Source: an uncultured Rhizobium sp. (lineage in GTDB: Bacteria; Pseudomonadota; Alphaproteobacteria; Rickettsiales; UBA1997). From it: DNA of 64,000 nucleotides. The DNA lies in contig CAZOKU010000001.1 of NCBI GenBank assembly GCA_964580715.1, positions 17,310 to 81,309 of the forward strand, read 5' to 3'. Shown one piece after another: positions 1-14,519 of the stretch. Position numbers and translations under genes: made by a program. The notes beneath the pieces were generated by a model that was not told the DNA's origin, did not search any database, and saw nothing but the letters and a program-made list of their open reading frames with translations. Every line of letters begins with the position of its first letter. Within the stretch, counting starts at the first letter, position 1.

Positions 1-993
1 GCCAGAATTCACTTTCCTGGCAACTTCCACATTGATGTTCCGTGTTATTATGAAATTCCAGACACAAAAAAAACTGAACTTGCAACAGAAGCTAATATCT
101 GGGAAGACAGTGATCCTGAGATATTTTATAACTGGTTTCAAAATAGTTTTAGCGATTCAGAACGAGAGATAGCTAGAAGAATTATTAAATATACCAAGTG
201 TTGGTCAGGTATAAGCTTTGTGAATCAGAGGAAAAATGGAAGACCATCATCTATGTTGATTATGGTATTAGTTACTCAAGCTTTATTAGGTTTACCAAAA
301 AATATTTTTGAGCTTTGTGATGATGAAATATTAGCGGCTGTTCTTGGTAAAATTCTTCAAAGATTACAAAACTCATCAAAAGTAAATAATCCTGTAAATG
401 ATAAAGAATGTTTAAGTGACCGAATTAAGGAGTTTGATGTTTTTTTGTCTGAATTAGAATCCTTCGTAAAAATTGCATTTGATGCTTTAAATTGCTCAAG
501 CACTATTGATGCTCTGGCAAAATGGCAATTAGCTTTTCACCACTTTATTCCTATGTTAGATGAAGAGGAGACGGCTAAATCCATCAATAATTCTTTGGTG
601 CCTTACAGTTTTGATCCAACAATCGAAATAACTGCCAAATCTAATAATTCTATGATTGGTTCCGGAATTAATAAAATTGGACCAATACCAAAAAATTGTA
701 GCATTACTTTTCGGATTGCTAATGAATCTCAGATCCCCGTTGGTAGCTCTATTCAATGGACTGTAAGAAATTTTGGAAGTGATTCTGAATATGTAAACGA
801 TATTGGACATCTGGCTGGCAATTCTACAAGTGTTACAAGAAATTCCGCTTATAATGGAACCCATTACATGGATTGCCTTATCACTCGCAATAATCAGGTT
901 ATAGGCTCTAAGAGAGCTACGGTTGAAATTAAAGGAAATCCAATTCCTAAAAGGAATCCTCCTAAGCCAAAATGGGTTAAGTTTAAGAGATGA
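1..993 (+). CDS. cGAS/DncV-like (SMODS/CD-NTase-like) nucleotidyltransferase, 5' end outside window, with extra C-terminal domain
   Basis: Frame 1 is open from nt 1, so the GTG at 220 in the ORF track is not the true start. The translation ...NFHIDVPCYY...WEDSDPEIFYNWF...IARRIIKYTKCWSG...RPSSMLIMVLV...ALAKWQLAF follows the motif order I associate with the distal half of CD-NTases. The last ~140 aa (from about nt 570) are a beta-rich extension of unknown function. Confidence 0.5.
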   Translation, partial: ARIHFPGNFHIDVPCYYEIPDTKKTELATEANIWEDSDPEIFYNWFQNSFSDSEREIARRIIKYTKCWSGISFVNQRKNGRPSSMLIMVLVTQALLGLPKNIFELCDDEILAAVLGKILQRLQNSSKVNNPVNDKECLSDRIKEFDVFLSELESFVKIAFDALNCSSTIDALAKWQLAFHHFIPMLDEEETAKSINNSLVPYSFDPTIEITAKSNNSMIGSGINKIGPIPKNCSITFRIANESQIPVGSSIQWTVRNFGSDSEYVNDIGHLAGNSTSVTRNSAYNGTHYMDCLITRNNQVIGSKRATVEIKGNPIPKRNPPKPKWVKFKR

Positions 994-1040
994 AGGAGTC
1001 TTTATGATAATTAAAATTCTAATGATGAGGTATCTAGGAA

Positions 1041-4019
1041 ATGTCAAAAAATAGTAAATTTAACAAAGGATCAGATTGGAGACGATGGGATTTGCATGTT
1101 CACACCCCAGGAACAGCTTTGAATAACAATTATAGTGGCAACGATGCTGCGGTATGGGAAAAATTTATTAAAAAAATTGAAGAGCAGGAAAACGTTAAAG
1201 CTCTAGGTATTGCCGATTATTTATCTATCGAAGGATATAAAAAGGTTTTTGAATATAAAAAGAGCGGAAGGTTATCGAATATTGATCTTATAATTCCCAA
1301 TATCGAATTCAGGATTACGCCAGAAACCGAAAAATCCAAAGGAATAAATATACATATTCTCGTATCGCCTGAATTGGAAAATCATATTCAGATAATAGAG
1401 GAAAGCCTATCAAGACTGACTATTAAAATAAATGATCAACCTTTTGGCTGTTGTCGCAGCTCCTTTATAGCCATTGGTAAAAAAAGAGATAAGAATAGCA
1501 GTGATGAAGCCGCCTATAGAGAAGGAGTTAATCAATACAAAGTCGATTTTAGTTCTTTTCAAGAATGGTTTAAACAAGAACGTGTTTTACAGGAAAATAG
1601 CTTAATTGCTGTTTCCAACTCGACTAATGATGGCGTATCTGGATTACAAAAGGATAATGGATTTGCTGAAACCAGAGATCAGATTTACCGATTTACCGAT
1701 ATTATTTTTTCTGCGAGACCAAAGGATCGAGAATATTTTTTGGGAAAAGGCGCGGATAATCTGGATGTAATATGTGAAAAATATAAAGCCATTAAGCCAT
1801 GCTTACACGGATCAGATGCTCATTCGTTTGAAAAATTATTTGAGCCTGATGAAAAAAGATACTGCTGGATTAAAGCTGATTTAACATTTGAAGGATTAAA
1901 ACAGACTGTTATCGAGCCGGAAAGTCGTGTTTTTATAGGTGAAAAAGTTACTTCAGATAGCTTTCCTTCTCACGTAATAGATAAAATTCAAATTGATAAC
2001 GCCTTGTGGTTAAAAAATAATGCCATACCTCTGAATTCTGGTCTTGTTACAATAATTGGTGCTAGAGGTTCTGGAAAAACTGCTCTTGCCGACTTTATAG
2101 CTGTTGGAGGGTATTCCATGAATCAGCAAAAAAATGATCGCTCTTTTGTAAAAAGGGCAGAAGAAAAATTACGAGATGAATCAGTTAAACTTTTTTGGAA
2201 ATCGAAAGAAGAAACTTCAAATAATTTAAAAAGCATTGGTATTGAAGATATTTTATATGAGCCAAAGGTTCAGTATCTTTCTCAGCAGTTTGTTGATCAA
2301 TTATGCTCTGCCGATGGATTAACAAATGAGTTAATGAAAGAAATAGAGCGCGTTATTTTTGATTATCATAAACAAATAGATCGAAAAGGTGCCGAATCAT
2401 TTGATGAATTAATGGAGTTAGAATTATCTAGCGTAACAGAATCTAGAAAATTTCATGAAGACCAAATAAAAGATTATACAAACAACCTAAACATATTGCG
2501 CAGCAAAAAAGATAGTGTTCCAACCTCAAAGCAATCCCTGCAAAGCAAAAAAAAGACAATCGAAGAAGATAAAAAAAATAGACAGTCTTTAGTAGGAAAT
2601 GATCAAGAAAAACTCACCAAAGAATACGAAACTATTTCCAGTTTTTTGGATCAAATAAGAGTAAATTTAGAAAATGAAACTCGCAAAAAATCTTCTTTAG
2701 AAACCTTAAAAACGGTTACTGTTAACATTAAAAATAATGTTATTCCAAATTCTTTAAGAAAATTAAAACAAGAACATCCTGGAGTTAACCTCACAGAAGA
2801 TCAATGGGGAAAGTTTGAATTGAGTTTTAAAGGAGATGTGGAGCAGATATTGTCTGCAGAAATTTTAAAATCTGAAAAAATAATTACTTCTATTACTGGT
2901 ATGAAAGTTCCTGAAATCAAAGATGATCAACTAAAAGTTTCCATAATACTTCAAGACTCTGATTTATCAAAACAGAGCTATAATCTTTTAAAAGCAGAAC
3001 AAGGTAGAATTGAGAGATTGATTGGTATTGGAAAAGAAAATGCTGTAAAGCTCAGGAAAATTTCTGAAAAAATTACCAAAGATGAAGTTGCTTATACCAA
3101 GCTAGAAAATGAGATAAAAGAAGCTGAATCATCTGGTGAAAAAATAGCTGAATTGACGCGTTTAAGAAAAGAATCTTACAAGAACGTATTTGGGACTTTG
3201 GTGGAGCATGAAAAAATTCTAGAGAATCTTTATCAACCATTAATGGAAGGTATCAAAGATGATGAAGGCACATTAGGAAAATTAACATTTCATGTACAGA
3301 GATTCGTTGATATTGATGAATGGGTAAAAAGTGGGGAGAATTTGCTGGATTTAAGAAAAGGTACCACCTTTAGAAGAAAAGGCTCTCTTCATGAAATTGT
3401 TAAAAAATCCATACTTCCTGTTTGGCAAAAAGGATCGGCAGAAGATGTTGCAAATGCTATGGAAAAATTTTTAGAAGAATATACTAACTCACTACTGGAA
3501 TGCTCTCCAGTAGAAAAACAAGAAGCCAATTTATTTAGAGACTGGGCTAATAAAATTTCCGCGTGGCTTTACAGCACCGATCATATATCAATAAACTATG
3601 GTGTACAATATGATGGGGTCAGTATTCAACAGCTATCTCCAGGAACGAGAGGAATTGTTTTATTACTTTTGTATCTAGTTATCGATAAAGATGATTATCG
3701 ACCTCTTATAATAGACCAGCCAGAAGAAAATCTCGATCCAAAATCAATTTTTGATGAATTGGTGACAAGATTTCGTTCAGCAAAGCGAAAAAGGCAAATC
3801 ATAATAGTAACGCATAATGCAAATTTGGTTGTTAATACTGATGCTGAGCAAGTTATTGTAGCATCCTGCTTATCTCACCAACAAAACCAACTACCAGAGA
3901 TAGGTTATATATCTGGTAGTTTAGAAAATCCTGAGATTCGCAAGAAAGTCTGTGAAATATTGGAAGGTGGAGAAAAGGCATTTAAAGAAAGAGCAAAAAG
4001 ATTGCGAGTTTCTATGTAA
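1041..4019 (+). CDS. PHP-domain phosphoesterase fused to SMC/Rad50-like ABC ATPase (TrlF/PplA-like architecture)
   Basis: N-terminus has WDLHVHTPGT, NIEFRI, NIHILV and HGSDAHS, which are PHP metal-binding motifs. These are followed by Walker A GARGSGKT, a ~300-aa Lys/Glu-rich coiled-coil, signature-like QLSPGTRG, Walker B LIIDQPEENLD and H-loop IVTHNANL. A GAGGT SD-like sequence lies upstream, 47 nt after the preceding stop. Confidence 0.75.
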   Translation: MSKNSKFNKGSDWRRWDLHVHTPGTALNNNYSGNDAAVWEKFIKKIEEQENVKALGIADYLSIEGYKKVFEYKKSGRLSNIDLIIPNIEFRITPETEKSKGINIHILVSPELENHIQIIEESLSRLTIKINDQPFGCCRSSFIAIGKKRDKNSSDEAAYREGVNQYKVDFSSFQEWFKQERVLQENSLIAVSNSTNDGVSGLQKDNGFAETRDQIYRFTDIIFSARPKDREYFLGKGADNLDVICEKYKAIKPCLHGSDAHSFEKLFEPDEKRYCWIKADLTFEGLKQTVIEPESRVFIGEKVTSDSFPSHVIDKIQIDNALWLKNNAIPLNSGLVTIIGARGSGKTALADFIAVGGYSMNQQKNDRSFVKRAEEKLRDESVKLFWKSKEETSNNLKSIGIEDILYEPKVQYLSQQFVDQLCSADGLTNELMKEIERVIFDYHKQIDRKGAESFDELMELELSSVTESRKFHEDQIKDYTNNLNILRSKKDSVPTSKQSLQSKKKTIEEDKKNRQSLVGNDQEKLTKEYETISSFLDQIRVNLENETRKKSSLETLKTVTVNIKNNVIPNSLRKLKQEHPGVNLTEDQWGKFELSFKGDVEQILSAEILKSEKIITSITGMKVPEIKDDQLKVSIILQDSDLSKQSYNLLKAEQGRIERLIGIGKENAVKLRKISEKITKDEVAYTKLENEIKEAESSGEKIAELTRLRKESYKNVFGTLVEHEKILENLYQPLMEGIKDDEGTLGKLTFHVQRFVDIDEWVKSGENLLDLRKGTTFRRKGSLHEIVKKSILPVWQKGSAEDVANAMEKFLEEYTNSLLECSPVEKQEANLFRDWANKISAWLYSTDHISINYGVQYDGVSIQQLSPGTRGIVLLLLYLVIDKDDYRPLIIDQPEENLDPKSIFDELVTRFRSAKRKRQIIIVTHNANLVVNTDAEQVIVASCLSHQQNQLPEIGYISGSLENPEIRKKVCEILEGGEKAFKERAKRLRVSM

Positions 4020-4041
4020 TAAAAAATTAGAGAGGAAAGCT

Positions 4042-4992
4042 ATGCTTGGAAAATTAGAGAAAGTCGATTTACGCCAAATATGGCAGACTGAAGGACAAGG
4101 TTTTACGCCGTGGCTTGCGCGTGAGGAAAATTTGGAGATGCTTGGAGAAGTGATTGGAATTGAATTGGAACTTGAGGCGCAGGAAAAAGATGTGGGACCA
4201 TTTAGAGCGGATATTTTGTGTAAGAATACCGAAGATGACAGCTTGGTTTTAATCGAGAATCAGATTGAAAGAACTGATCATAAGCATCTTGGTCAGCTTT
4301 TGACTTACGCAGCTGGATTACAGTCTGTTACGATCGTTTGGGTGGCAGCGAAATTTACTGAAGAGCATCGTGCAGCACTTGATTGGCTTAATGAAATTAC
4401 AGATGAGAAGTTTCGTTTTTTTGGTTTAGAAGTGGAATTGTGGAAAATTGGTAATTCAGCAGCTGCGCCAAAGTTTAATGTGATTTCTAAGCCTAATAAT
4501 TGGAGCAAAACCGTTTCTCAGGCAGCAAAAGAGATTTTAGATCAAACGACCAGTGAAACCAAGCTTTTGCAATATCGTTATTGGGAAAAACTAACTGAAT
4601 ATCTTGAAGAAAATAAATCAAAGCTTCGTCCGCAAGATTCTCGTCCTAAGCATTGGCAAATTTTTACTATTGGTCGTAGCGGATTTCATTTAGCTGCGCT
4701 TTTAAATACGCGTGATAAGAAAATTGGAGTTGAGTTAGTGATTGTTGATAAGGATGAGGCAAAAGGATTTTATCATCTTTTAGCAAAAGATAAATCAGCA
4801 ATTGAAGCTGAAATTGGATGTGCTTTGGAATGGAGAGAAAATCCGGAAAAGATTCAATCAAAAATTGCTTTGTTTAAAAATTTTGATCCTACCAACGAAG
4901 CGAGCTGGCCATCTCAGCATGAATGGATGAAAAGTACGGTTGAAAAATTTGATACTGTTTTCAGAAAACGAGTTCGTTCTTTAGCTATCTGA
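4042..4992 (+). CDS. PD-(D/E)XK nuclease-like protein with DUF4268-type C-terminal domain
   Basis: Start chosen at ATG 4042, preceded by AGAGGAAAG. FRADILCK...LVLIENQIERTDHKHLGQLLTYAAG...IVWVAAKFTEEHRAALDWLN is the D...E-x-Q core plus conserved block of this family. The gene begins 22 nt after the ATPase stop. Confidence 0.7.
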   Translation: MLGKLEKVDLRQIWQTEGQGFTPWLAREENLEMLGEVIGIELELEAQEKDVGPFRADILCKNTEDDSLVLIENQIERTDHKHLGQLLTYAAGLQSVTIVWVAAKFTEEHRAALDWLNEITDEKFRFFGLEVELWKIGNSAAAPKFNVISKPNNWSKTVSQAAKEILDQTTSETKLLQYRYWEKLTEYLEENKSKLRPQDSRPKHWQIFTIGRSGFHLAALLNTRDKKIGVELVIVDKDEAKGFYHLLAKDKSAIEAEIGCALEWRENPEKIQSKIALFKNFDPTNEASWPSQHEWMKSTVEKFDTVFRKRVRSLAI

Positions 4993-6352: not shown

Positions 6353-6646
6353 TTATTTGATTTTAATATTGTTGCCGAGAAGCGCAATTATACCAGCGGT
6401 GAGAAGTGTCATAAAACCGATGAGGATGCACTTAAGAAAAATTCTGAAGCTATCCTTCCTTGCAACGCGAAAAGCTTTTAATAACTCTCGCAAATCTCTT
6501 ATATCTACAAAAGCGTTTTCATCATTCAATCCAAGTTCAGATAGAGCCATTCTAGAGCCTTTCTGAGACGCTTTTTGCAGCAATTCTTCAAGTTCGCTTT
6601 TTGAAATAATAAAATCGCGTAGTTCTTTTTTACTCTTTTTGCTCAT
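6353..6646 (-). CDS. phage membrane protein (C-terminal TM; possible holin partner)
   Basis: 97 aa with a charged helical N-terminus and the C-terminal TM segment ILIGFMTLLTAGIIALL. Located between gpD and the endolysin. Confidence 0.45.
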   Translation of the reverse strand: MSKKSKKELRDFIISKSELEELLQKASQKGSRMALSELGLNDENAFVDIRDLRELLKAFRVARKDSFRIFLKCILIGFMTLLTAGIIALLGNNIKIK

Positions 6647-7631
6647 TTTCTAATTTGGGAGTTGCTGTAAGTTGTGAAATAAAACCTTGATCACTTATGG
6701 AGTGAGTGACACTTTCAATAATGAATTTTTTATCCTGAAGATATTTTATTCCCTCAATCTGAATTTTGTTTTCTGCACTTAAAGCAGGATTGCCTGCAAG
6801 AGTTATGTTTAGTTTTTCCTTATCTTTTTGAAATTCGGCGAATTTAGCTGTTGCTGCACTCAAAGCTCTTTGCTTATCAGTGAATTTATATCTTAAATTA
6901 TATGCAGGATCACCGCTGCCAACAAAAACATCTTCTTCTTTACCGCTAGAAAAATTATGCCATTTAGCAATTACTTTCCCAAATTTTTCAAAGTCAGAAA
7001 TTTTTAAATTCCAACTCGATATTTCTGCTTTTGAAATTTTTATTAGTGGCAAATCAATTCCATTAACAGAGACACTTTTTCCTTTCTGAAAAAATAATAA
7101 TTTGCCTAATGTTAATTTGATAAAAGCGCCGTAGCGCAAGGATAAAGTAGTTAGAAATGATATATCACTTTCATCGGTTTGATCTATGTGACTGATATAT
7201 ATCTGATTAAAATATTCATCAATTACGCTGTTTAAATTATGTGAATTGGCAATTGCTGTGATAATTCCAACCAAGGTATAACCGTGCCACGATTTGCTTT
7301 TTGGTGCTTTTATTTGTTTTGTTAAATTTCTATCTAGTGCATTGTTTGCCTTGCTGGTTATTCGCATTTGCGAAGGTGGTGATGAAACTTCAATATCATC
7401 TACGATGTAGCTTCCCATTCTGCTTAATGGTTTGTTTTCATAACCAAAAAAAACTTCAAGCACTGAGCCACGCGAAGGGATTTCTAATTTTTCATCTCGA
7501 TTATCTAAAAGGATTTCGCAAGTGTCAGAAACCAAACCAGTTTCATCTGTGACATTGATCGAAACCAATCTTTGCGCTATTAACGCTGTGACATCTTTTT
7601 TATCTGCAATAATTTTAAATGCTGGATTCAC
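6630..7631 (-). CDS. tail protein, P2 gpD-like (late control D family)
   Basis: 333 aa, last gene of the tail module. The N-terminus (PAFKI...DVT...L.S..V.D..G..SD..E) and the position after gpU/gpX are typical of gpD. Confidence 0.85.
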   Translation of the reverse strand: MNPAFKIIADKKDVTALIAQRLVSINVTDETGLVSDTCEILLDNRDEKLEIPSRGSVLEVFFGYENKPLSRMGSYIVDDIEVSSPPSQMRITSKANNALDRNLTKQIKAPKSKSWHGYTLVGIITAIANSHNLNSVIDEYFNQIYISHIDQTDESDISFLTTLSLRYGAFIKLTLGKLLFFQKGKSVSVNGIDLPLIKISKAEISSWNLKISDFEKFGKVIAKWHNFSSGKEEDVFVGSGDPAYNLRYKFTDKQRALSAATAKFAEFQKDKEKLNITLAGNPALSAENKIQIEGIKYLQDKKFIIESVTHSISDQGFISQLTATPKLENEQKE

Positions 7632-7685
7632 TTAATTTTTATGCGATAATCTAATGGTTCATCAACCTGATTTTGAGGAAAATTT

Positions 7686-7853
7686 ATGGAATTATTTGTT
7701 GGCTTAGGCATTGCGCTGTTGTTTTTTGCTCTTGGCAGAGAATTAATCTGTTGGTATTTCAAGATTAACAAAATCGTTGGGCTGCTTCAGTCAATTGATA
7801 ACTCATTGCAAAGAAACTCAAAAAATAGCGATAATACTACGACCAAAGTTTAA
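7686..7853 (+). CDS. small membrane protein (55 aa), opposite-strand insert between gpD and gpX
   Basis: Below the ORF-track size cut-off. ATG 7686 is preceded by GAGGAAAATTT. Product is MELFVGLGIALLFFALGRELICWYFKINKIVGLLQSIDNSLQRNSKNSDNTTTKV, one TM helix plus a polar tail. Its 3' end overlaps the gpX 3' end by 17 nt, convergently. Confidence 0.4.
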   Translation: MELFVGLGIALLFFALGRELICWYFKINKIVGLLQSIDNSLQRNSKNSDNTTTKV

Positions 7854-8043
7854 CGCTTTCTGCTTCTGCTTCCTGAGCTAAATCTGGCAAAACAATTTTT
7901 ACTCCGGCGTTAAATATCGCGTCTGGTTCTGCCAAATGACGATTGGCTTCTAAAACTTTTTCTAGAACTCCTGAATTTTTGCCATAATATTTCCAGCAAA
8001 TTGCATCAAGCACATCTCCATCTTTTGTGATGTAGGTGATCAT
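7837..8043 (-). CDS. tail protein X (P2 gpX-like)
   Basis: MITYITKDGDVLDAICWKYYG...VLEANRHLAE...G.KIVLPD....ESVKLWS matches P2 gpX nearly motif for motif. Confidence 0.85.
   Translation of the reverse strand: MITYITKDGDVLDAICWKYYGKNSGVLEKVLEANRHLAEPDAIFNAGVKIVLPDLAQEAEAESVKLWS
8022..8043. repeat. 22-bp direct repeat copy 1 (CTTTTGTGATGTAGGTGATCAT = first 7 codons of gpX, reverse strand)
   Basis: Exact repeat of 8537..8558, read directly from the sequence. Confidence 0.95.
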
Positions 8044-8156
8044 ATTGGAATAAAATAATAAATTGATAATGCTATGGTTCGTATGGCCTGAAATCGTAGC
8101 AATGCAAGTTTTTATTCAAAAAATACAAATAATATTAACTCATACTCATTTAAAAC

Positions 8157-8525
8157 ATGAAAAAGAAATCAAAAAATTCTGGAGATGCAGCCGGAGCAAT
8201 TTTAATACTAATTGCTATAGCGGTATTAGTGGGGGTAATTTTTTCTGCAATTGTCTTTGCTCCAGCTATTGGCATAACCACAATAATTGATCTTATCAAA
8301 CCATTAAAATTGGGACAACTTTGGGGAACCGTCTTCACATCAACTATTTTGATTGCTGGGGGATTGCATTTTATAGCGAAGAAGAAGGCTTTAAAAATCT
8401 ATGTAATATCTGCTATTTCTATTTTTGTGATTTTAGGAATTTATACTCTTTTTGATCCAGAAAATATATTTTATGATGCCGTAAAAAGAATGTATCCATT
8501 CGTTTTTAAGACAGGTGGAAACTAA
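8157..8525 (+). CDS. multi-pass membrane protein (122 aa), opposite-strand insert
   Basis: Three to four hydrophobic helices after a basic N-terminus (MKKKSKNSG). It lies inside the 515-bp segment bracketed by the 22-bp repeat. Confidence 0.55.
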   Translation: MKKKSKNSGDAAGAILILIAIAVLVGVIFSAIVFAPAIGITTIIDLIKPLKLGQLWGTVFTSTILIAGGLHFIAKKKALKIYVISAISIFVILGIYTLFDPENIFYDAVKRMYPFVFKTGGN

Positions 8526-8536
8526 AACATAGCCGC

Positions 8537-8558
8537 CTTTTGTGATGTAGGTGATCAT
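8537..8558. repeat. 22-bp direct repeat copy 2 (orphan duplicate of the gpX 5' end)
   Basis: Identical to 8022..8043. The flanking bases differ on both sides. Confidence 0.95.
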
Positions 8559-8579
8559 TAATTAATCAGAATATTTGGT

Positions 8580-9359
8580 ATGACTAAAAATAAGAACTTT
8601 CAAACTGAATTTATAAAAGCCGCAAAGGAATTTAATGGAAATGATAAGCTATTAACGTCAGATTTTTTAGAAATGGCTTACAAAGAATATTTTTATTCCT
8701 CTAATTATTTGGCCAATCAAGAAGTTAATGAGTTGACTCGCTATTCATCTTGGAATATTTGTTATAAATATTTTCGAGACGAATTTTTTAAAAAAGATAA
8801 AATTAAAGACGAAGATCCAGACCTTAGAATAGCTGGACTTCATTTGGCTTTTTATCTAGCGAGCTGGGGTATGTTTAGAAATCCAATGCTCTTAAATTCT
8901 GGTATTAAAAAATATGAACTTTTAGCCAAAGAACTATTCAGTTTTAAAGGTTGTAGCGAATCTAAAAATCAACAGTTTGAAAAAATAAAATCATTCCTAG
9001 AAGAATGGGAAAAAAACCCAGCAGAAACATCTGGAGCAATTGCAAATAACCAAATAAACCCAACCGACACCCTAATAACAAAAATAATGCTCGGAGCATA
9101 CTCAAATACTCCTGCTTTTGATAGGTTTTTTAAAACAACAGTAAGTAGATTTTATATTGAGAATAATGGCAGACTCGTCGGGAAGTTAGAGGAAAAAATA
9201 CAAAAGATTTTTAGTATCAAAATTGAAGGCGATATAACGGTAGGTGACTTTATAAAATCACTTAGCAAAAACTCTGCTAAAGAATTTTCCCTAGAGGACA
9301 TAAAGATCCTCGACGCAATATTTTTTCAGATTGGCTGGGCTCTCGACTACAAAGAGTAA
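8580..9359 (+). CDS. hypothetical protein (259 aa), opposite-strand insert between gpX and gpU
   Basis: Long uninterrupted ORF in AT-rich DNA that fills the gap. The predicted protein is helical (LHLAFYLASWGMFRNP, TLITKIMLGAYSNTPAFDRFF). Family not recognised. Confidence 0.6.
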   Translation: MTKNKNFQTEFIKAAKEFNGNDKLLTSDFLEMAYKEYFYSSNYLANQEVNELTRYSSWNICYKYFRDEFFKKDKIKDEDPDLRIAGLHLAFYLASWGMFRNPMLLNSGIKKYELLAKELFSFKGCSESKNQQFEKIKSFLEEWEKNPAETSGAIANNQINPTDTLITKIMLGAYSNTPAFDRFFKTTVSRFYIENNGRLVGKLEEKIQKIFSIKIEGDITVGDFIKSLSKNSAKEFSLEDIKILDAIFFQIGWALDYKE

Positions 9360-9374
9360 GGGAGATAATTCTAA

Positions 9375-9869
9375 TCATATTGCTTTCAAAACATTCTGAA
9401 TAATTCCTTTAATGCCTGGTTTTGCATCTTCGCCATAACGCTTAAGAGTAATTGAAAATTCGATTTTAAGTGGTGCGCCATCTTTCATAAACACACTTTG
9501 GTTTTCAGAAATTTTTACAATACACCATCTACCAAAGGCATTACCATTTCCGGAAATTAGCATTAGTGGTTTTCCAATCCCTGCCTCAGCGCGCATTAAA
9601 GTAACCTGGCGTAGTCCACCCTTAAAATGAGGATAAATCACACCATCAAGATCAATTGTTTCCACACCAAAACCAGTGAATTGTAAGGCAGGATTTGTGC
9701 CGATGCGATTAATTTCCTGCCAATGATATTCACTTTGTCTTTTAAGATTTTGAAAAGCAGCAGAGCTAATTGCAAAGCGATAAACACCAAGAATCATCAT
9801 CATATTGATTCCAAGCGCGCTATTTAAATTCAGTTTGCCACCAAGATTTTTAAAAGAATCAAAAGCCAT
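9375..9869 (-). CDS. tail protein U (P2 gpU-like)
   Basis: 164 aa, immediately after the tape measure with shared boundary codons. YRF..S....Q.L.R...Y.W......G..PA.QF.G...E...L.GV..P matches the gpU pattern. Confidence 0.85.
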   Translation of the reverse strand: MAFDSFKNLGGKLNLNSALGINMMMILGVYRFAISSAAFQNLKRQSEYHWQEINRIGTNPALQFTGFGVETIDLDGVIYPHFKGGLRQVTLMRAEAGIGKPLMLISGNGNAFGRWCIVKISENQSVFMKDGAPLKIEFSITLKRYGEDAKPGIKGIIQNVLKAI

Positions 9870-12190
9870 TAATCGTAATTTAAAGCAAATTTTCGTGCAG
9901 ATAATTTTCTGAAAGTTTCATTTAGTGCAGCTTTTATATGATCAGCAATTTTTTTCTCATCAACATTGTTACCAGCGTTTATGGTAATTGGTGCAGAAAT
10001 TGAAATTTGCTGTGATCCACTATTATTTGCTGAAGATGAAATTAAGGGTATTTCCAATGATGGAATTTTTTCTATATCACTTTTTGTATCAAAGTTGCTG
10101 ACGATATTTCCAACTACTGATGACGATTTCTGCTCTTTAGAATCAGAATTTCCAGCAACAAAATTCCATGCTTTTCCAGCAACACTTGTAATAGAGCTAA
10201 CAACTGATTTTAAAGGTTTTGCAAGCTTCATTACCCACTCAAAAGCAGTTTTTACCCATCCAACAATTCCGCTAAAAATATTTTTGAAAAATTCACCAAC
10301 CGGAGTCCAATTTTTTATCAGCAAAGTTGCACCAATAGCAATTCCCGCAATTATAAGTCCGATTGGATTTGAGATTAAAGCCAAACCCATTGCTCTTATA
10401 GCAGTAGTAATGGCGGGCATTACCATACCAACTAAAGTAAGAGTGGTTCTAAAAGCCAATAACGCACCTTGCGCTGCTAAAAATCCACCACGCAAAAAAG
10501 TAAAGGCATAGCCAAGAGCAATTGAGGCAACTTTGAATGCAATTAAAGAAGTAATTGTCAGGCCGATATATTTTGTAATGACCGGAAATCTTTCTGCTAA
10601 AGCGCTGACTTTGCTGGCAAAAGCTGCTGTGCCGTTTGCTGCTGCGGTTAATGTGGGAAGAAGAGTATTACCAAGAGAAATTCCAACTGATTCAATTGCT
10701 GATTGAAATTCTTTGAAAGAACCAACAGTGGTATTTTGCAATCTTTCTGCCATTTTTTTGGCAGTGCCGTCAGCATTATTTATTTTATTTAAAACTTCAT
10801 CAACAGAGCCGGTTTCAAATCCTTTAAAAATTGCTAAAGCGCCAGATGTTGAGTAAGTTCCAAAAATATCTTTGATAACTCCTAACTTTTGATCATCAGA
10901 AAGATTTTTGGTTGCTTGATGTAAATCGCGTAAAATATCAACCATCGAACGCATTTTGCCCTTGTCAAAAATCTTGACTCCAAGACCTTTAAGTCTGCTT
11001 TGAGCAAGCAAAGCTTCCTTAGCAACATCAGGCATTTCTTCAGCGCTGATTTTCATTTGATCGCGCATTTCGCCAAGCGCTTTTGCACCGGCTCTTGCGG
11101 GAGCAGCGAGGCGTAAATATGCTGATCTTAGCATCGTTCCTGCCATTGTTGCCTGAATTCCTGCATTACTCAAAACACCAGCAAGAGCTGTGGTTTCTTG
11201 TAGACTTCCACCAACTGCCGCTGCTGCAGGTGCAACGAATTTCATCGTTTCACCAAGCATTTTAACATCGGTGTTAGTTGCAATTGCAGCTTGCGCCAAA
11301 ACATCTGCCGCTTCGCCAGCGCGTTCAGCTTTCATTGCAAAGCCATTCAGAATATTTGATACAATCTCTGCTGATTGTGCTAACTCCATATTATCAGCAA
11401 TTGCCAAATTTAAAATTGCCGGAGTTGCTGCTAAAATTTGATTGGTTCTAAAACCAGCCATGCCAAGAAATTTCATGGCCTCAGCAGCTTGAGCGGAAGT
11501 GTATTGCGTGGTTGCGCCAAGCTCTCTGGCTTTAGCAGTGAGTTGCTTAAATCCTTCTGAATTAGCAGCTTCTTCAGTAACAGCACCAACTTGTGCCATA
11601 GCAAATTCAAAATCTACTGCTGGTTTTATTGCGGCATAAAGTGAACTTCCTAAAGCAACTGCATCAACCATTTGCGCGCGGTAATTAGCACGATTGTTTA
11701 GGTTTTGTGATTTGGCATCGGCATTGGTTTGAAGAGCTGCCTGTCTCTTTTTTAAAGTTCCAAGAGTTTTGCCAAGTGATGCTTGTTGTTGATTTAAATT
11801 TTTGAAATCAACGCCAGCAGCGCTTAATGCTTTACCCATTTCACGAGTTGCTTGTGCCGACTCCATGAAAGCAGTTTTTGCTCTTTGTGCTGCCGCTTCT
11901 GATTTGCGAAAATTATTTTGAAGCTCTTTGGAAGGCTTATCAGTTTTGCTGATTTCTGCGCTTAAGAGATTGAGCTTTTGCTTTGCATCTTGATAAGCAA
12001 TTGATGCTTCTTTTGTTGCGCGTGATGATTTTCTGAAAGCCTCAATTTCTGATGCTTTGTCATTAACTTTTTTTATTGCATCACCAAGTGCTGAAAGTTG
12101 CTTGTTCGCTCCACTGAAAGAATCTCGGAAAGACTTTCCCAGATCAGCACCAATCAGTATTGATACAGCAGTGTGAGTTGAAGATGACAT
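9869..12190 (-). CDS. tail tape measure protein
   Basis: 773 aa, Ala/Gly-rich and helical with a hydrophobic central block. Positioned after gpE/E'. Confidence 0.9.
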   Translation of the reverse strand: MSSSTHTAVSILIGADLGKSFRDSFSGANKQLSALGDAIKKVNDKASEIEAFRKSSRATKEASIAYQDAKQKLNLLSAEISKTDKPSKELQNNFRKSEAAAQRAKTAFMESAQATREMGKALSAAGVDFKNLNQQQASLGKTLGTLKKRQAALQTNADAKSQNLNNRANYRAQMVDAVALGSSLYAAIKPAVDFEFAMAQVGAVTEEAANSEGFKQLTAKARELGATTQYTSAQAAEAMKFLGMAGFRTNQILAATPAILNLAIADNMELAQSAEIVSNILNGFAMKAERAGEAADVLAQAAIATNTDVKMLGETMKFVAPAAAAVGGSLQETTALAGVLSNAGIQATMAGTMLRSAYLRLAAPARAGAKALGEMRDQMKISAEEMPDVAKEALLAQSRLKGLGVKIFDKGKMRSMVDILRDLHQATKNLSDDQKLGVIKDIFGTYSTSGALAIFKGFETGSVDEVLNKINNADGTAKKMAERLQNTTVGSFKEFQSAIESVGISLGNTLLPTLTAAANGTAAFASKVSALAERFPVITKYIGLTITSLIAFKVASIALGYAFTFLRGGFLAAQGALLAFRTTLTLVGMVMPAITTAIRAMGLALISNPIGLIIAGIAIGATLLIKNWTPVGEFFKNIFSGIVGWVKTAFEWVMKLAKPLKSVVSSITSVAGKAWNFVAGNSDSKEQKSSSVVGNIVSNFDTKSDIEKIPSLEIPLISSSANNSGSQQISISAPITINAGNNVDEKKIADHIKAALNETFRKLSARKFALNYD

Positions 12191-12238
12191 TTCTAGTGCT
12201 ATTTGCTAAATTTTTTCTAAAGCCAAAAATTAAAATTT

Positions 12239-12997
12239 ATGAACAAACTAAATACAAAATTCATCGAATGGGCATCTTCTTTATCTGGATGTAATGGTGG
12301 TAATCCTCGTGCAGAAATTTGGGTATGTGGCATAGAGCACGGCCTGGGAAAAAGTGATAATCCAGAAAATTATTACTCCAACAAGTTACCGCAAGAAATC
12401 GCAAAAGGAGCATTTACTCCCTCTGAAAAATATGACTGGAGATCGCACTTAAAATATGGGTATGGCAGAAGCTTGGCAAAACTTTACTCTGCGGTAAAAG
12501 GGCGTGATATTAGAAATTATAAAGAACTCGCTAATGAAAACGATAATCACCAAATATTTCAACTTAACCTTTACCCTATAGCTTTTAATAGCGTAAAAAG
12601 CGATTTATGGAAACAGAATAAAATGCCAGAACTAACTGGTTTCGAAGAAAAACATTTATTCAAAACATGGTGTTTTCTGCATCGCTTTCCAAAAATTTCT
12701 AAGATGGTTTCAAAAACAGGTTATTCGCCTAAATTAATCATCGGAACTGGTGTGAATTATTTAACTGACTTCTTTTCTTGTTTTGCTGGAGCTAGCGGAA
12801 TTGATACGCCAATTCACATTGGGATAATTCCAATTTCAGAAAAAAATAAAAAGAAACGCATTTACTATTGGGCAAAGCTTAGCAACGGAACTCTTCTTGT
12901 GGTTATTCCTTTTTTTTCGAGTCAGAGCGGATTAAACAGCGACTATCTTCTGCAGAAAATGGGTGAAGAAATAAGAAATTTGGTGCCAAATATTTAA
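12239..12997 (+). CDS. hypothetical protein (252 aa), opposite-strand insert between tape measure and gpE'; weak uracil-DNA-glycosylase-superfamily-like motif order
   Basis: ORF fills the gap exactly, with its stop 4 nt from the gpE' stop. EIWVCGIEHGLG, LNLYPIAFNS and VVIPFFSSQSGLNS occur in the order of UDG-fold motifs. This is a tentative by-eye impression only. Confidence 0.55.
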   Translation: MNKLNTKFIEWASSLSGCNGGNPRAEIWVCGIEHGLGKSDNPENYYSNKLPQEIAKGAFTPSEKYDWRSHLKYGYGRSLAKLYSAVKGRDIRNYKELANENDNHQIFQLNLYPIAFNSVKSDLWKQNKMPELTGFEEKHLFKTWCFLHRFPKISKMVSKTGYSPKLIIGTGVNYLTDFFSCFAGASGIDTPIHIGIIPISEKNKKKRIYYWAKLSNGTLLVVIPFFSSQSGLNSDYLLQKMGEEIRNLVPNI

Positions 12998-14165: not shown

Positions 14166-14519
14166 ATGATACGATATCAAAACTTACTCTCAGAGATAGA
14201 GCGATTTCGCAATGAAGAACTTCCTCCAAGAAGCGAAGATCCATTGATTTTACTGAGCTTACTAGACAAGAAACCAATCAAAATAGGTTACGGATTTTGT
14301 GGGATGTGTGACAGTATAATGCGCGATGAATGGACATTTGAGTTAGATAATGGCCGTTATGATTTGTATCATCTTGTAAACCACTTTAAACTACTTAGGA
14401 TTAGTGAGTACGATATACTCATAAAATACCTTGAAGAAGATCTTCTTAAGAGTGTTGAGTTAAAAAAATCACAATCCATATCGCATAAAATTGCAAACTT
14501 CATAAAAAAATTAGTTTAG
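14166..14519 (+). CDS. hypothetical protein (117 aa), opposite-strand insert between tail tube and sheath
   Basis: Only ORF in the gap, ending 9 nt before the sheath stop. No recognised motifs. Confidence 0.5.
   Translation: MIRYQNLLSEIERFRNEELPPRSEDPLILLSLLDKKPIKIGYGFCGMCDSIMRDEWTFELDNGRYDLYHLVNHFKLLRISEYDILIKYLEEDLLKSVELKKSQSISHKIANFIKKLV

Follow-up and report, generated by a model that had tools for sequence, protein, structure and literature searches.

The stretch of DNA considered in the current work, hereafter the window, comprises 64,000 nucleotides from an uncultured Rhizobium sp. (contig CAZOKU010000001.1, positions 17,310 to 81,309), and carries on its minus strand a P2-type contractile-tail module in which the small gene for tail protein X (gpX) is separated from the upstream core gene gpU by two plus-strand genes, encoding a 259-aa protein (p259) and a 122-aa membrane protein (ORF122). 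A 22-nt sequence corresponding to the beginning of gpX, CTTTTGTGATGTAGGTGATCAT, occurs a second time between these two genes, and we consider it probable, at roughly 75%, that this second copy is the head of a dead, truncated gpX and represents an insertion scar in a cargo hotspot of the P2-like tail operon. The features on which this reading is based are the following (loci from other assemblies being denoted by L and a number):

7837..8043, minus strand: intact resident gpX (tail protein X, 68 aa), matching Pfam PF05489 (Phage_tail_X) with E=3e-19.
8022..8043, no strand: copy 1 of the exact 22-mer, covering gpX codons 1-7 plus 1 nt.
8044..8156, plus strand: non-coding leader of ORF122 (113 nt), abutting the gpX ATG, 68% identical to L041 666-781 and also alignable to L050.
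8157..8525, plus strand: ORF122, a small multi-pass membrane protein, with codons 1-116 (to 8504) conserved and the last 6 codons plus stop (8505-8525) antisense of the remnant.
8505..8558, minus strand: the scar, a truncated gpX pseudogene (gpX nt 1-54, codons 1-18), hereafter the remnant, with 22/22 and then 23/32 identity to the gpX of L044.
8537..8558, no strand: second exact occurrence of the 22-mer (copy 2), with which the remnant begins; its orthologue in L044, L045 and L046 is the true start of gpX.
8559..8579, no strand: 21-nt spacer from the old gpX start to the p259 start codon, identical to L044 2277-2297, 18/21 identical to L046, its TAATTAA being kept in L041.
8580..9359, plus strand: p259, the earlier cargo gene at the junction of U and X, with 250 homologues in bacteria and archaea, located at the same site without ORF122 in L044-L046.

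A search of the window confirmed CTTTTGTGATGTAGGTGATCAT as an exact direct repeat at 8022-8043 and 8537-8558, with no third copy even when three or fewer mismatches were allowed and with 0.00 matches expected by chance (100 shuffles). Its reverse complement, ATGATCACCTACATCACAAAAG, constitutes the first 22 nt of the 68-aa ORF at 7837-8043 (minus strand), and the assignment of this ORF to gpX, as proposed in a first-pass annotation made from the letters alone, is borne out by the Phage_tail_X profile, which is matched with 68.8 bits against a cutoff of 22 over residues 5-57. The same annotation had described unrelated bases on both sides of the copies, which does not hold for the gpX-internal side: the repeat finder extends the similarity to 32 nt with 28/32 identity (8012-8043 versus 8527-8558), and the homology of copy 2 to gpX alleles of relatives reaches approximately gpX nt 54. 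That the exact match stops after 22 nt reflects the variation among gpX alleles, in which codons 1-7 hardly differ but nt 23-54 do; the same 22-mer opens gpX in L005, L008, L041 and L046, and other close relatives match it at 18-21 of the 22 positions. That the repeat is due to chance or to faulty assembly deserves next to no credence: the AT-rich composition, and nothing else, speaks for it, and against it stand the shuffles and the recovery of this architecture, with diverged sequence, in three assemblies that derive from other samples (L041, an NCBI metagenome-assembled genome, or MAG; L042, ENA; L043, Logan). The identical arrangement is moreover recovered in a Logan assembly (L039/L040). 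The assembly artefact against which the first-pass annotation had cautioned is thus ruled out, since the same scar, in diverged form, is repeated in L041-L043.

The second copy of gpX (8505-8558) is a pseudogene fragment without an intact frame, only nt 1-54 being homologous; the 41-codon ORF running through it is, beyond these nucleotides, antisense to ORF122 and is not conserved. Positions 8511-8558 are aligned by blastn to the gpX of both L041 and L044. Over gpX nt 23-54 the remnant is identical to L044 at 23/32 positions versus 16/32 for the resident gpX, and a score of 23/32 against this part of L044 gpX is attained by 2 of the 127,938 32-mers of the window, namely the remnant and the resident gpX, the next best reaching 21. 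Nine sites within nt 23-54 differ between the resident and the L044 gpX, and at these the remnant agrees with L044 in seven cases and with the resident gene in none. The remnant therefore corresponds to the L044/L046 allele of gpX and not to the resident allele, and since the two copies belong to different alleles they do not go back to a recent tandem duplication of the resident gene. Consequently, the duplication of the gpX start recognized in the first-pass annotation is real, but it encompasses ~54 nt instead of 22 and was not copied from the resident gpX.

Loci in which the site is devoid of ORF122 were found via p259 homologues. In L044/L045 (JGI; gene present on 10 contigs) and L046 (an NCBI MAG), whose p259 homologues are 89% and 75% identical, respectively, the gene order is U-[p259 homologue]-gpX-D, and the intact gpX start is followed by TAATTAATCAGAATATTTGGT-ATG(p259), which can also be written TAATTAATCAG(A/G)ATATTT..ATG; blastn places window positions 8511-12192 colinear with L044 2229-5928. 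The shared 21-nt spacer and this colinearity establish copy 2 as the orthologue of a genuine gpX start, such that gpX once began at 8558, 21 nt from p259. Alignment with prophages lacking the 8044..8558 segment, which had been proposed as a check, thus has their gpX starting exactly at copy 2, in agreement with the earlier suggestion that gpX formerly started at 8558 beside the 259-aa ORF and that the segment with the membrane-protein gene arrived later.

As the first-pass annotation had described, the segment between the copies carries the 122-aa membrane ORF (8157-8525, plus strand), with strongly hydrophobic stretches at residues 7-50 and 77-101. Five homologues aligned to ORF122 display 46-90% identity and are conserved up to ...MYPF(V/I/S), being divergent thereafter. 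The closest homologue, with 91% identity by BLASTP, is that of L041, L042 and L043, and the Bacteroidota homologue (47%) possesses a different tail and ends 6 residues later, with 12 residues after MYPFI compared to 6 after MYPFV in the window. Positions 8505-8525 are the antisense of gpX nt 34-54, and ORF122 codon 116 is thus joined to gpX nt 54 at 8504/8505, inside two coding sequences, which makes the joint illegitimate; at its opposite end, the segment directly borders the start codon (ATG) of the intact gpX. Purifying selection acts on ORF122 (dN/dS 0.23-0.34), and the resident gpX has a dN/dS of 0.12-0.35 versus relatives.

The event is old and the scar inherited, since L041-L043 carry the same scar within the order U-391aa-304aa-remnant-ORF120-gpX. 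The L041 remnant, CTTTTGTGATTTAGGTAATCAT, contains 2 mismatches in the 22-mer, which is followed by TAATTAA, and reads ATG ATT ACC TAA, with an in-frame stop at codon 4. Both the window and the L041 remnant share changes that are derived relative to all gpX alleles, and they therefore descend from one event predating the split of the lineages (ORF122 dS 0.22). Only the distal part of the remnant (gpX nt ~30-57) is found in L050/L051, where ORF125 (72% identity) takes the place of ORF122 and where the proximal 30 nt are replaced by another gene; at positions mutated in the window, the L050 remnant still reads CAGATAA as in gpX, so that the ORF122 tail is derived from gpX and is no assembly artefact.

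Regarding the origin of this arrangement, homology-facilitated illegitimate recombination between two related phages appears the most likely route, and a specific donor and recipient would, in our judgement, have an even chance of having been involved. The ancestral prophage had U, X and D overlapping by ATGA/GTGA, and the opposite-strand p259 then came between the U stop and the X start, producing the state of L044-L046. Later, a segment with the ORF122 gene plus a complete gpX start would have joined in, from a donor having ORF122 directly upstream of its own gpX, into a recipient having U-p259-gpX. On one side, an illegitimate joint would have fused ORF122 after codon 116 to recipient gpX nt 54, and on the other, homologous side (gpX/D) the exchange would have been resolved in or downstream of gpX. 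As an outcome, recipient gpX nt 1-54 would have been stranded between p259 and ORF122, ORF122 would have been given a new 6-codon tail, antisense of the remnant, and a functional gpX of a different allele would follow the cassette. Whereas the identity of the remnant, the relatives with empty and with filled sites, the location of the joint and the inheritance of the scar are shown, this donor/recipient route and the order of the strand exchanges are inferred; the joint at 8504/8505 lies inside two coding sequences and remnant and resident gpX differ in allele, but no donor was recovered. Several observations weigh against it: the donor arrangement (ORF122 upstream of gpX, no remnant) was not found in genome, viral or metagenome collections, so that the route is not directly shown and its choice over an in-situ duplication is inferential; the intact gpX of L041 has the allele type of the remnant, which fits in-situ duplication plus allele replacement in the window equally well; and a mosaic test of the resident gpX at nt 22 gave 18-22/22 versus 63-69/78, with no clear breakpoint. 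The in-situ duplicative insertion that constitutes the main alternative, to which we assign a tentative, minor probability, would involve a template switch (or staggered-break repair) that left gpX at nt 54, copied foreign ORF122 DNA and re-entered at the gpX ATG. It would explain why the duplication begins exactly at the ATG and why the intact gpX of L041 (ATGGCGATGTTTTGGATTTTATCTGTTGG) shares an L046-like allele type with the remnant, and in the window gpX a 22-mer as typically found in L046, L008 and L005 is followed by sequence that most resembles L010 and L038. For the window it nevertheless requires a second step, in which gpX downstream of nt ~22 was replaced by homologous exchange with another allele, and the corresponding mosaic signal is weak (the same 18-22/22 versus 63-69/78); no source of the foreign DNA was found.

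The donor/recipient route was also weighed against a target-site duplication caused by a mobile element (a transposon, an integron-type cassette or a homing-endonuclease gene) targeting the gpX start, which we regard as very improbable. Transposon target-site duplications measure 2-14 nt and, as in the window, constitute a direct repeat of target sequence flanking the inserted segment; here, in contrast, the duplication is ~54 nt long, its copies are different alleles, and the inserted gene, ORF122, is itself truncated at the joint. The repeated occupation of the U-X junction in relatives would be in line with a mobile element, as would a GIY-YIG nuclease of the T4 endonuclease II (EndoII) type at this junction, seen only in L005 and L050. 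However, the window segment contains neither a recombinase, transposase, integrase or nuclease nor terminal inverted repeats, and thus resembles neither a transposon or insertion sequence nor a free-standing homing endonuclease, and the other inserts present junction overlaps of just 0-9 nt.

The remnant is treated here as a neutral scar, no evidence for a function having been found: a consensus scan revealed no promoter or terminator at this position, its fold is no better than that of shuffled sequences (z = 0.47), and the sole Rfam match over 7000-10000, RT-7 at 9787-9938, lies outside the remnant with 16 bits versus a gathering threshold of 116.8 (E=0.93). That it was retained for a function seems improbable. 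It would then serve as a 5' control region of p259, the promoter of which must extend into the gpX 5' end in empty-site phages, as an antisense element, the 22 nt in the ORF122 transcript being fully complementary to the region around the start codon of gpX, or as a portable homology patch for cargo swap or deletion of 515 bp. In support of such a role, the remnant, together with TAATTAA, accompanies p259-family genes (in the window and in L041) and is lost in L050, where the neighbouring gene is a different one. Furthermore, identity between the window and L041 is 85-90% over gpX-ORF122-remnant (gpX 86%, ORF122 90%), drops to ~50% (p259 versus p304) immediately after the start of p259 and is regained at the stop of U, and the 22-mer is conserved at 20/22 positions compared to 68% in the other non-coding stretch, the leader. 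This conservation is nevertheless compatible with neutrality, as ~4 changes are expected in 22 nt at the ORF122 dS of 0.22 between window and L041 and 2 are seen (P ~0.18); the two L041 mismatches would break antisense pairing, L050 is without the 22-mer, and simple linkage accounts for the remnant travelling with p259. Rather remote, in our estimation, is the proposition that the remnant acts as a portable 22-54-nt homology patch to stack, swap or delete cargo at the U-X junction, or that, as part of the ORF122 transcript, it acts as an antisense at the site where gpX translation starts, be it in the same phage or in a superinfecting one, along with the related idea that the EndoII-like nuclease cuts insert-free U/X junctions. 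The two 22-mers could mediate precise loss of the 515-bp segment and, if the homology-patch proposition were true, recombination between them would regenerate the L044-type arrangement.

The remaining features of the tail module that are relevant to the junction are given below, the tube, sheath and chaperone genes being located further along the same module:

6630-7631, minus strand: gpD.
9372..9378, minus strand: ATGATTA at the U stop, where the U-side junction of the cargo region still has the ATGA overlap of the ancestral stop and start, together with 1-3 nt similar to the beginning of gpX.
9375..9869, minus strand: gpU, the upstream core gene bounding the hotspot, matching Pfam Phage_P2_GpU with E=1e-39 and used to find 38 related loci.
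9869-12190, minus strand: tape measure T.

A scan with gpU, the identity of which to cultured phages is <60%, retained one genome per species and yielded these 38 loci, all of which originate from metagenome-assembled alphaproteobacteria under labels such as Rickettsiales and "Rhizobium sp.", a single MAG often holding several copies; the setting of these relatives is that of freshwater alphaproteobacterial MAGs. At least seven loci belong to JAYQKE01 (L016-L026, L033), three to CAIRMX01 and three to JAGWWH01, several of the JAYQKE copies have split tblastn matches in T, D or X, suggesting frameshifts, and L026 contains an IS30-like transposase inside gpD. These repeated tail modules may be prophages that exist in several copies or are decaying, or they may constitute a tail-like element that has been domesticated.

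Full-length gpX homologues are present in all related loci, where the gene normally overlaps the end of U and the beginning of D. In most of the 38 loci (20+ relatives) a single base is shared on either side, between the stop of U and the start of X (...GCAATATGATCAC...) and between the stop of X and the start of D (...TCGTGAATCC...); these overlaps are of the ATGA/GTGA type, and their prevalence points to an ancestral state without intergenic DNA. Between the core genes of the window, plus-strand ORFs of unknown function are found as p259 and ORF122 at the U-X junction and as a 55-aa ORF at the X-D junction. The U-X junction is occupied repeatedly, in the window, L005, L010, L041-46 and L050, and among relatives it is either empty or contains p259, p259 plus ORF122, the 391-aa and 304-aa genes plus ORF120, an EndoII-like nuclease, or a 130-aa membrane protein. 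Sporadic inserts are found at U-X in L005 and L010, at X-D in L001, L002 and L028, and at T-U in L012 and L013. As in P2-type cargo hotspots, the core genes on either side of an insert adjoin or overlap each other in relatives, and the content of the site varies among close relatives.

The first-pass annotation had proposed that inserts at the tail junctions accumulate by recombination using conserved gene termini, and had advised a search for similar terminal duplications elsewhere. No long terminal duplication above the null was found at the other junction inserts (L005, L010, L001, L002, L028, L012, L013 and the X-D insert of the window), where junction overlaps amount to 0-9 nt and stop and start codons are preserved; the scar can therefore not be generalized as the route of insert accumulation. 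On the U side, insert-free relatives read ...GCAATATGATCAC/ATGATTAC, the window and L044 share ...GCAATATGATTAGAATTAT, and a 17-nt inverted similarity between the U 3' end and 8560-8576 is within the null. The pattern of identity between window and L041 indicates that cargo was swapped between the U 3' end and the remnant, and to that extent lends some support to the proposal; the location of the far joint inside coding sequences, and the other inserts without long scars, speak against it.

Further inserts were observed in the window and its relatives. The 55-aa ORF (7686-7853, plus strand), with one hydrophobic helix, fills an insert of ~208 nt that separates gpX from gpD and shares 17 nt with the 3' end of gpX, the overlapping GTGA at the gpX stop being changed to TAG; a 57%-identical homologue is found at the same junction in L001. 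A 252-aa ORF (12239-12997, plus strand) between T and the tail chaperone gene and a 117-aa ORF (14166-14519, plus strand) between tube and sheath are both on the opposite strand and have no assigned function; at the T-chaperone junction, L041 and L044 instead hold a GmrSD type IV restriction gene. Cargo is opposite to the tail-operon strand in the window and in most examined inserts, with the X-D insert of L028 and the L026 transposase as exceptions. The T-U junction of L012 (3979-6994) and L013 (2350-5209) holds a ~3-kb opposite-strand block of host-like genes, encoding an ApbE flavin transferase, an FMN-binding protein, a DUF6662 outer-membrane-type protein and a cytochrome-b561-like membrane protein, and X-D of L002 a cation-efflux gene plus a lipoprotein gene. 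The small nuclease of the GIY-YIG superfamily at U-X is located at 7505-7972 (minus strand) in L005 and at 773-1129 (plus strand) in L050; its family profile matches T4 endonuclease II (2wsh, E=1e-13) and Hpy188I, and 12 of the 42 family members match Pfam GIY-YIG.

With respect to the cargo proteins, p259 belongs to a widespread, uncharacterised family of ~220-aa all-alpha proteins, of which the 304-aa protein at the corresponding position in L041 is a diverged member and whose conserved residues include R54, S57, C61 and Y92-M98. The confident AF2 model of p259 is all-alpha (pLDDT 84.8, pTM 0.86), and neither PDB nor BFVD contains a significant structural match. A few family members (among homologues P0006-P0125) carry an N-terminal DUF7669 or DUF7662, and one archaeal homologue is found near a methylase and BrxC. 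Searches of Pfam, PADLOC, PHROGs and NCBIfam gave no function for p259, ORF122 or the 55-aa and 252-aa proteins (p55 and p252), nor a family for ORF122. The only non-phage homologues of ORF122 are those of Bacteroidota (L047-L049, L054 and L055; 47%), where the gene is directly downstream of a REase-ARP (PF22558) gene, with which it forms a conserved overlapping pair, in islands that also contain a Fic, GmrSD or AIPR-like gene. This pair, for which a literature search on REase-ARP returned no paper, may represent an undescribed two-gene system consisting of a nuclease plus a small membrane protein. A relationship of p259 to REase-ARP, by which it would pair with ORF122 as in Bacteroidota, was rejected, as no similarity was found. 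A defence or exclusion role for the cargo is plausible considering the defence-type neighbours in the genomic contexts of the homologues, ORF122 and p259 themselves having no match in PADLOC, Pfam or NCBIfam. Just past the gpD-side end of the prophage, genes at 220-4992 (plus strand) encode an AGS_C sensor domain (CBASS-associated), a 992-aa AAA_21/SMC_N ATPase and DUF4268, and look like a defence-type cluster.

The arrangement may be compared with several known systems. In comparisons of HK97 and HK022 by Hendrix and colleagues, morons were reportedly found between genes that are adjacent in relatives, with joints at or near gene boundaries that were ascribed to illegitimate recombination followed by selection for function. 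A classical moron brings along a promoter and a terminator, and its transcription takes place from the prophage. The window similarly has an extra gene between two genes adjacent in relatives; in contrast, the presumed ORF122 promoter within the leader has no sigma-70-like counterpart in 8044-8156, and no terminator follows 8525, by a consensus scan whose consensus may not be that of the host, and one joint lies inside two coding sequences, where it created a chimeric C-terminus. Homology-facilitated illegitimate recombination has been described for natural transformation of Acinetobacter and Streptococcus, and has in common with the route favoured here one homologous anchor (the gpX/D side), one illegitimate joint and recipient sequence duplicated next to the anchor; it differs in being defined for natural transformation instead of phage-phage exchange, and in that no donor was recovered here.

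P2-like phages contain hotspots of cargo and defence genes (Rousset et al. 2022, PMC9122126; Moura de Sousa et al. 2026, PMC13586616), in which small intergenic pseudogene-like pieces are probably remnants of intense recombination, whether homologous or illegitimate having been discussed and left undecided (PMC13586616). The present loci likewise have variable non-structural genes at fixed spots between core genes, quickly swapped among similar phages, but here these are located inside the tail operon (U-X, X-D, T-U, T-chaperone and tube-sheath) in uncultured freshwater alphaproteobacteria, the window cargo is without a recognisable defence domain, and the scar pinpoints the exact joint.

For the debated question of how cargo and defence genes enter and exit prophage hotspots, the locus represents a rare resolved example, in which insert-free, one-gene and two-gene states can be compared and the joint is mapped to the base. 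No new mechanism is revealed; instead, the locus is a well-resolved instance of a known phenomenon, the stacking by prophages of extra genes between tail genes. The second gene was added by one illegitimate joint inside a flanking core gene, later cargo swaps being bounded by core-gene termini, and the antisense strand of a tail gene has supplied a cargo gene with a new C-terminus. The hotspot picture is thereby extended from enterobacterial P2 to the tail-operon junctions of phages of uncultured freshwater Rickettsiales-like bacteria.

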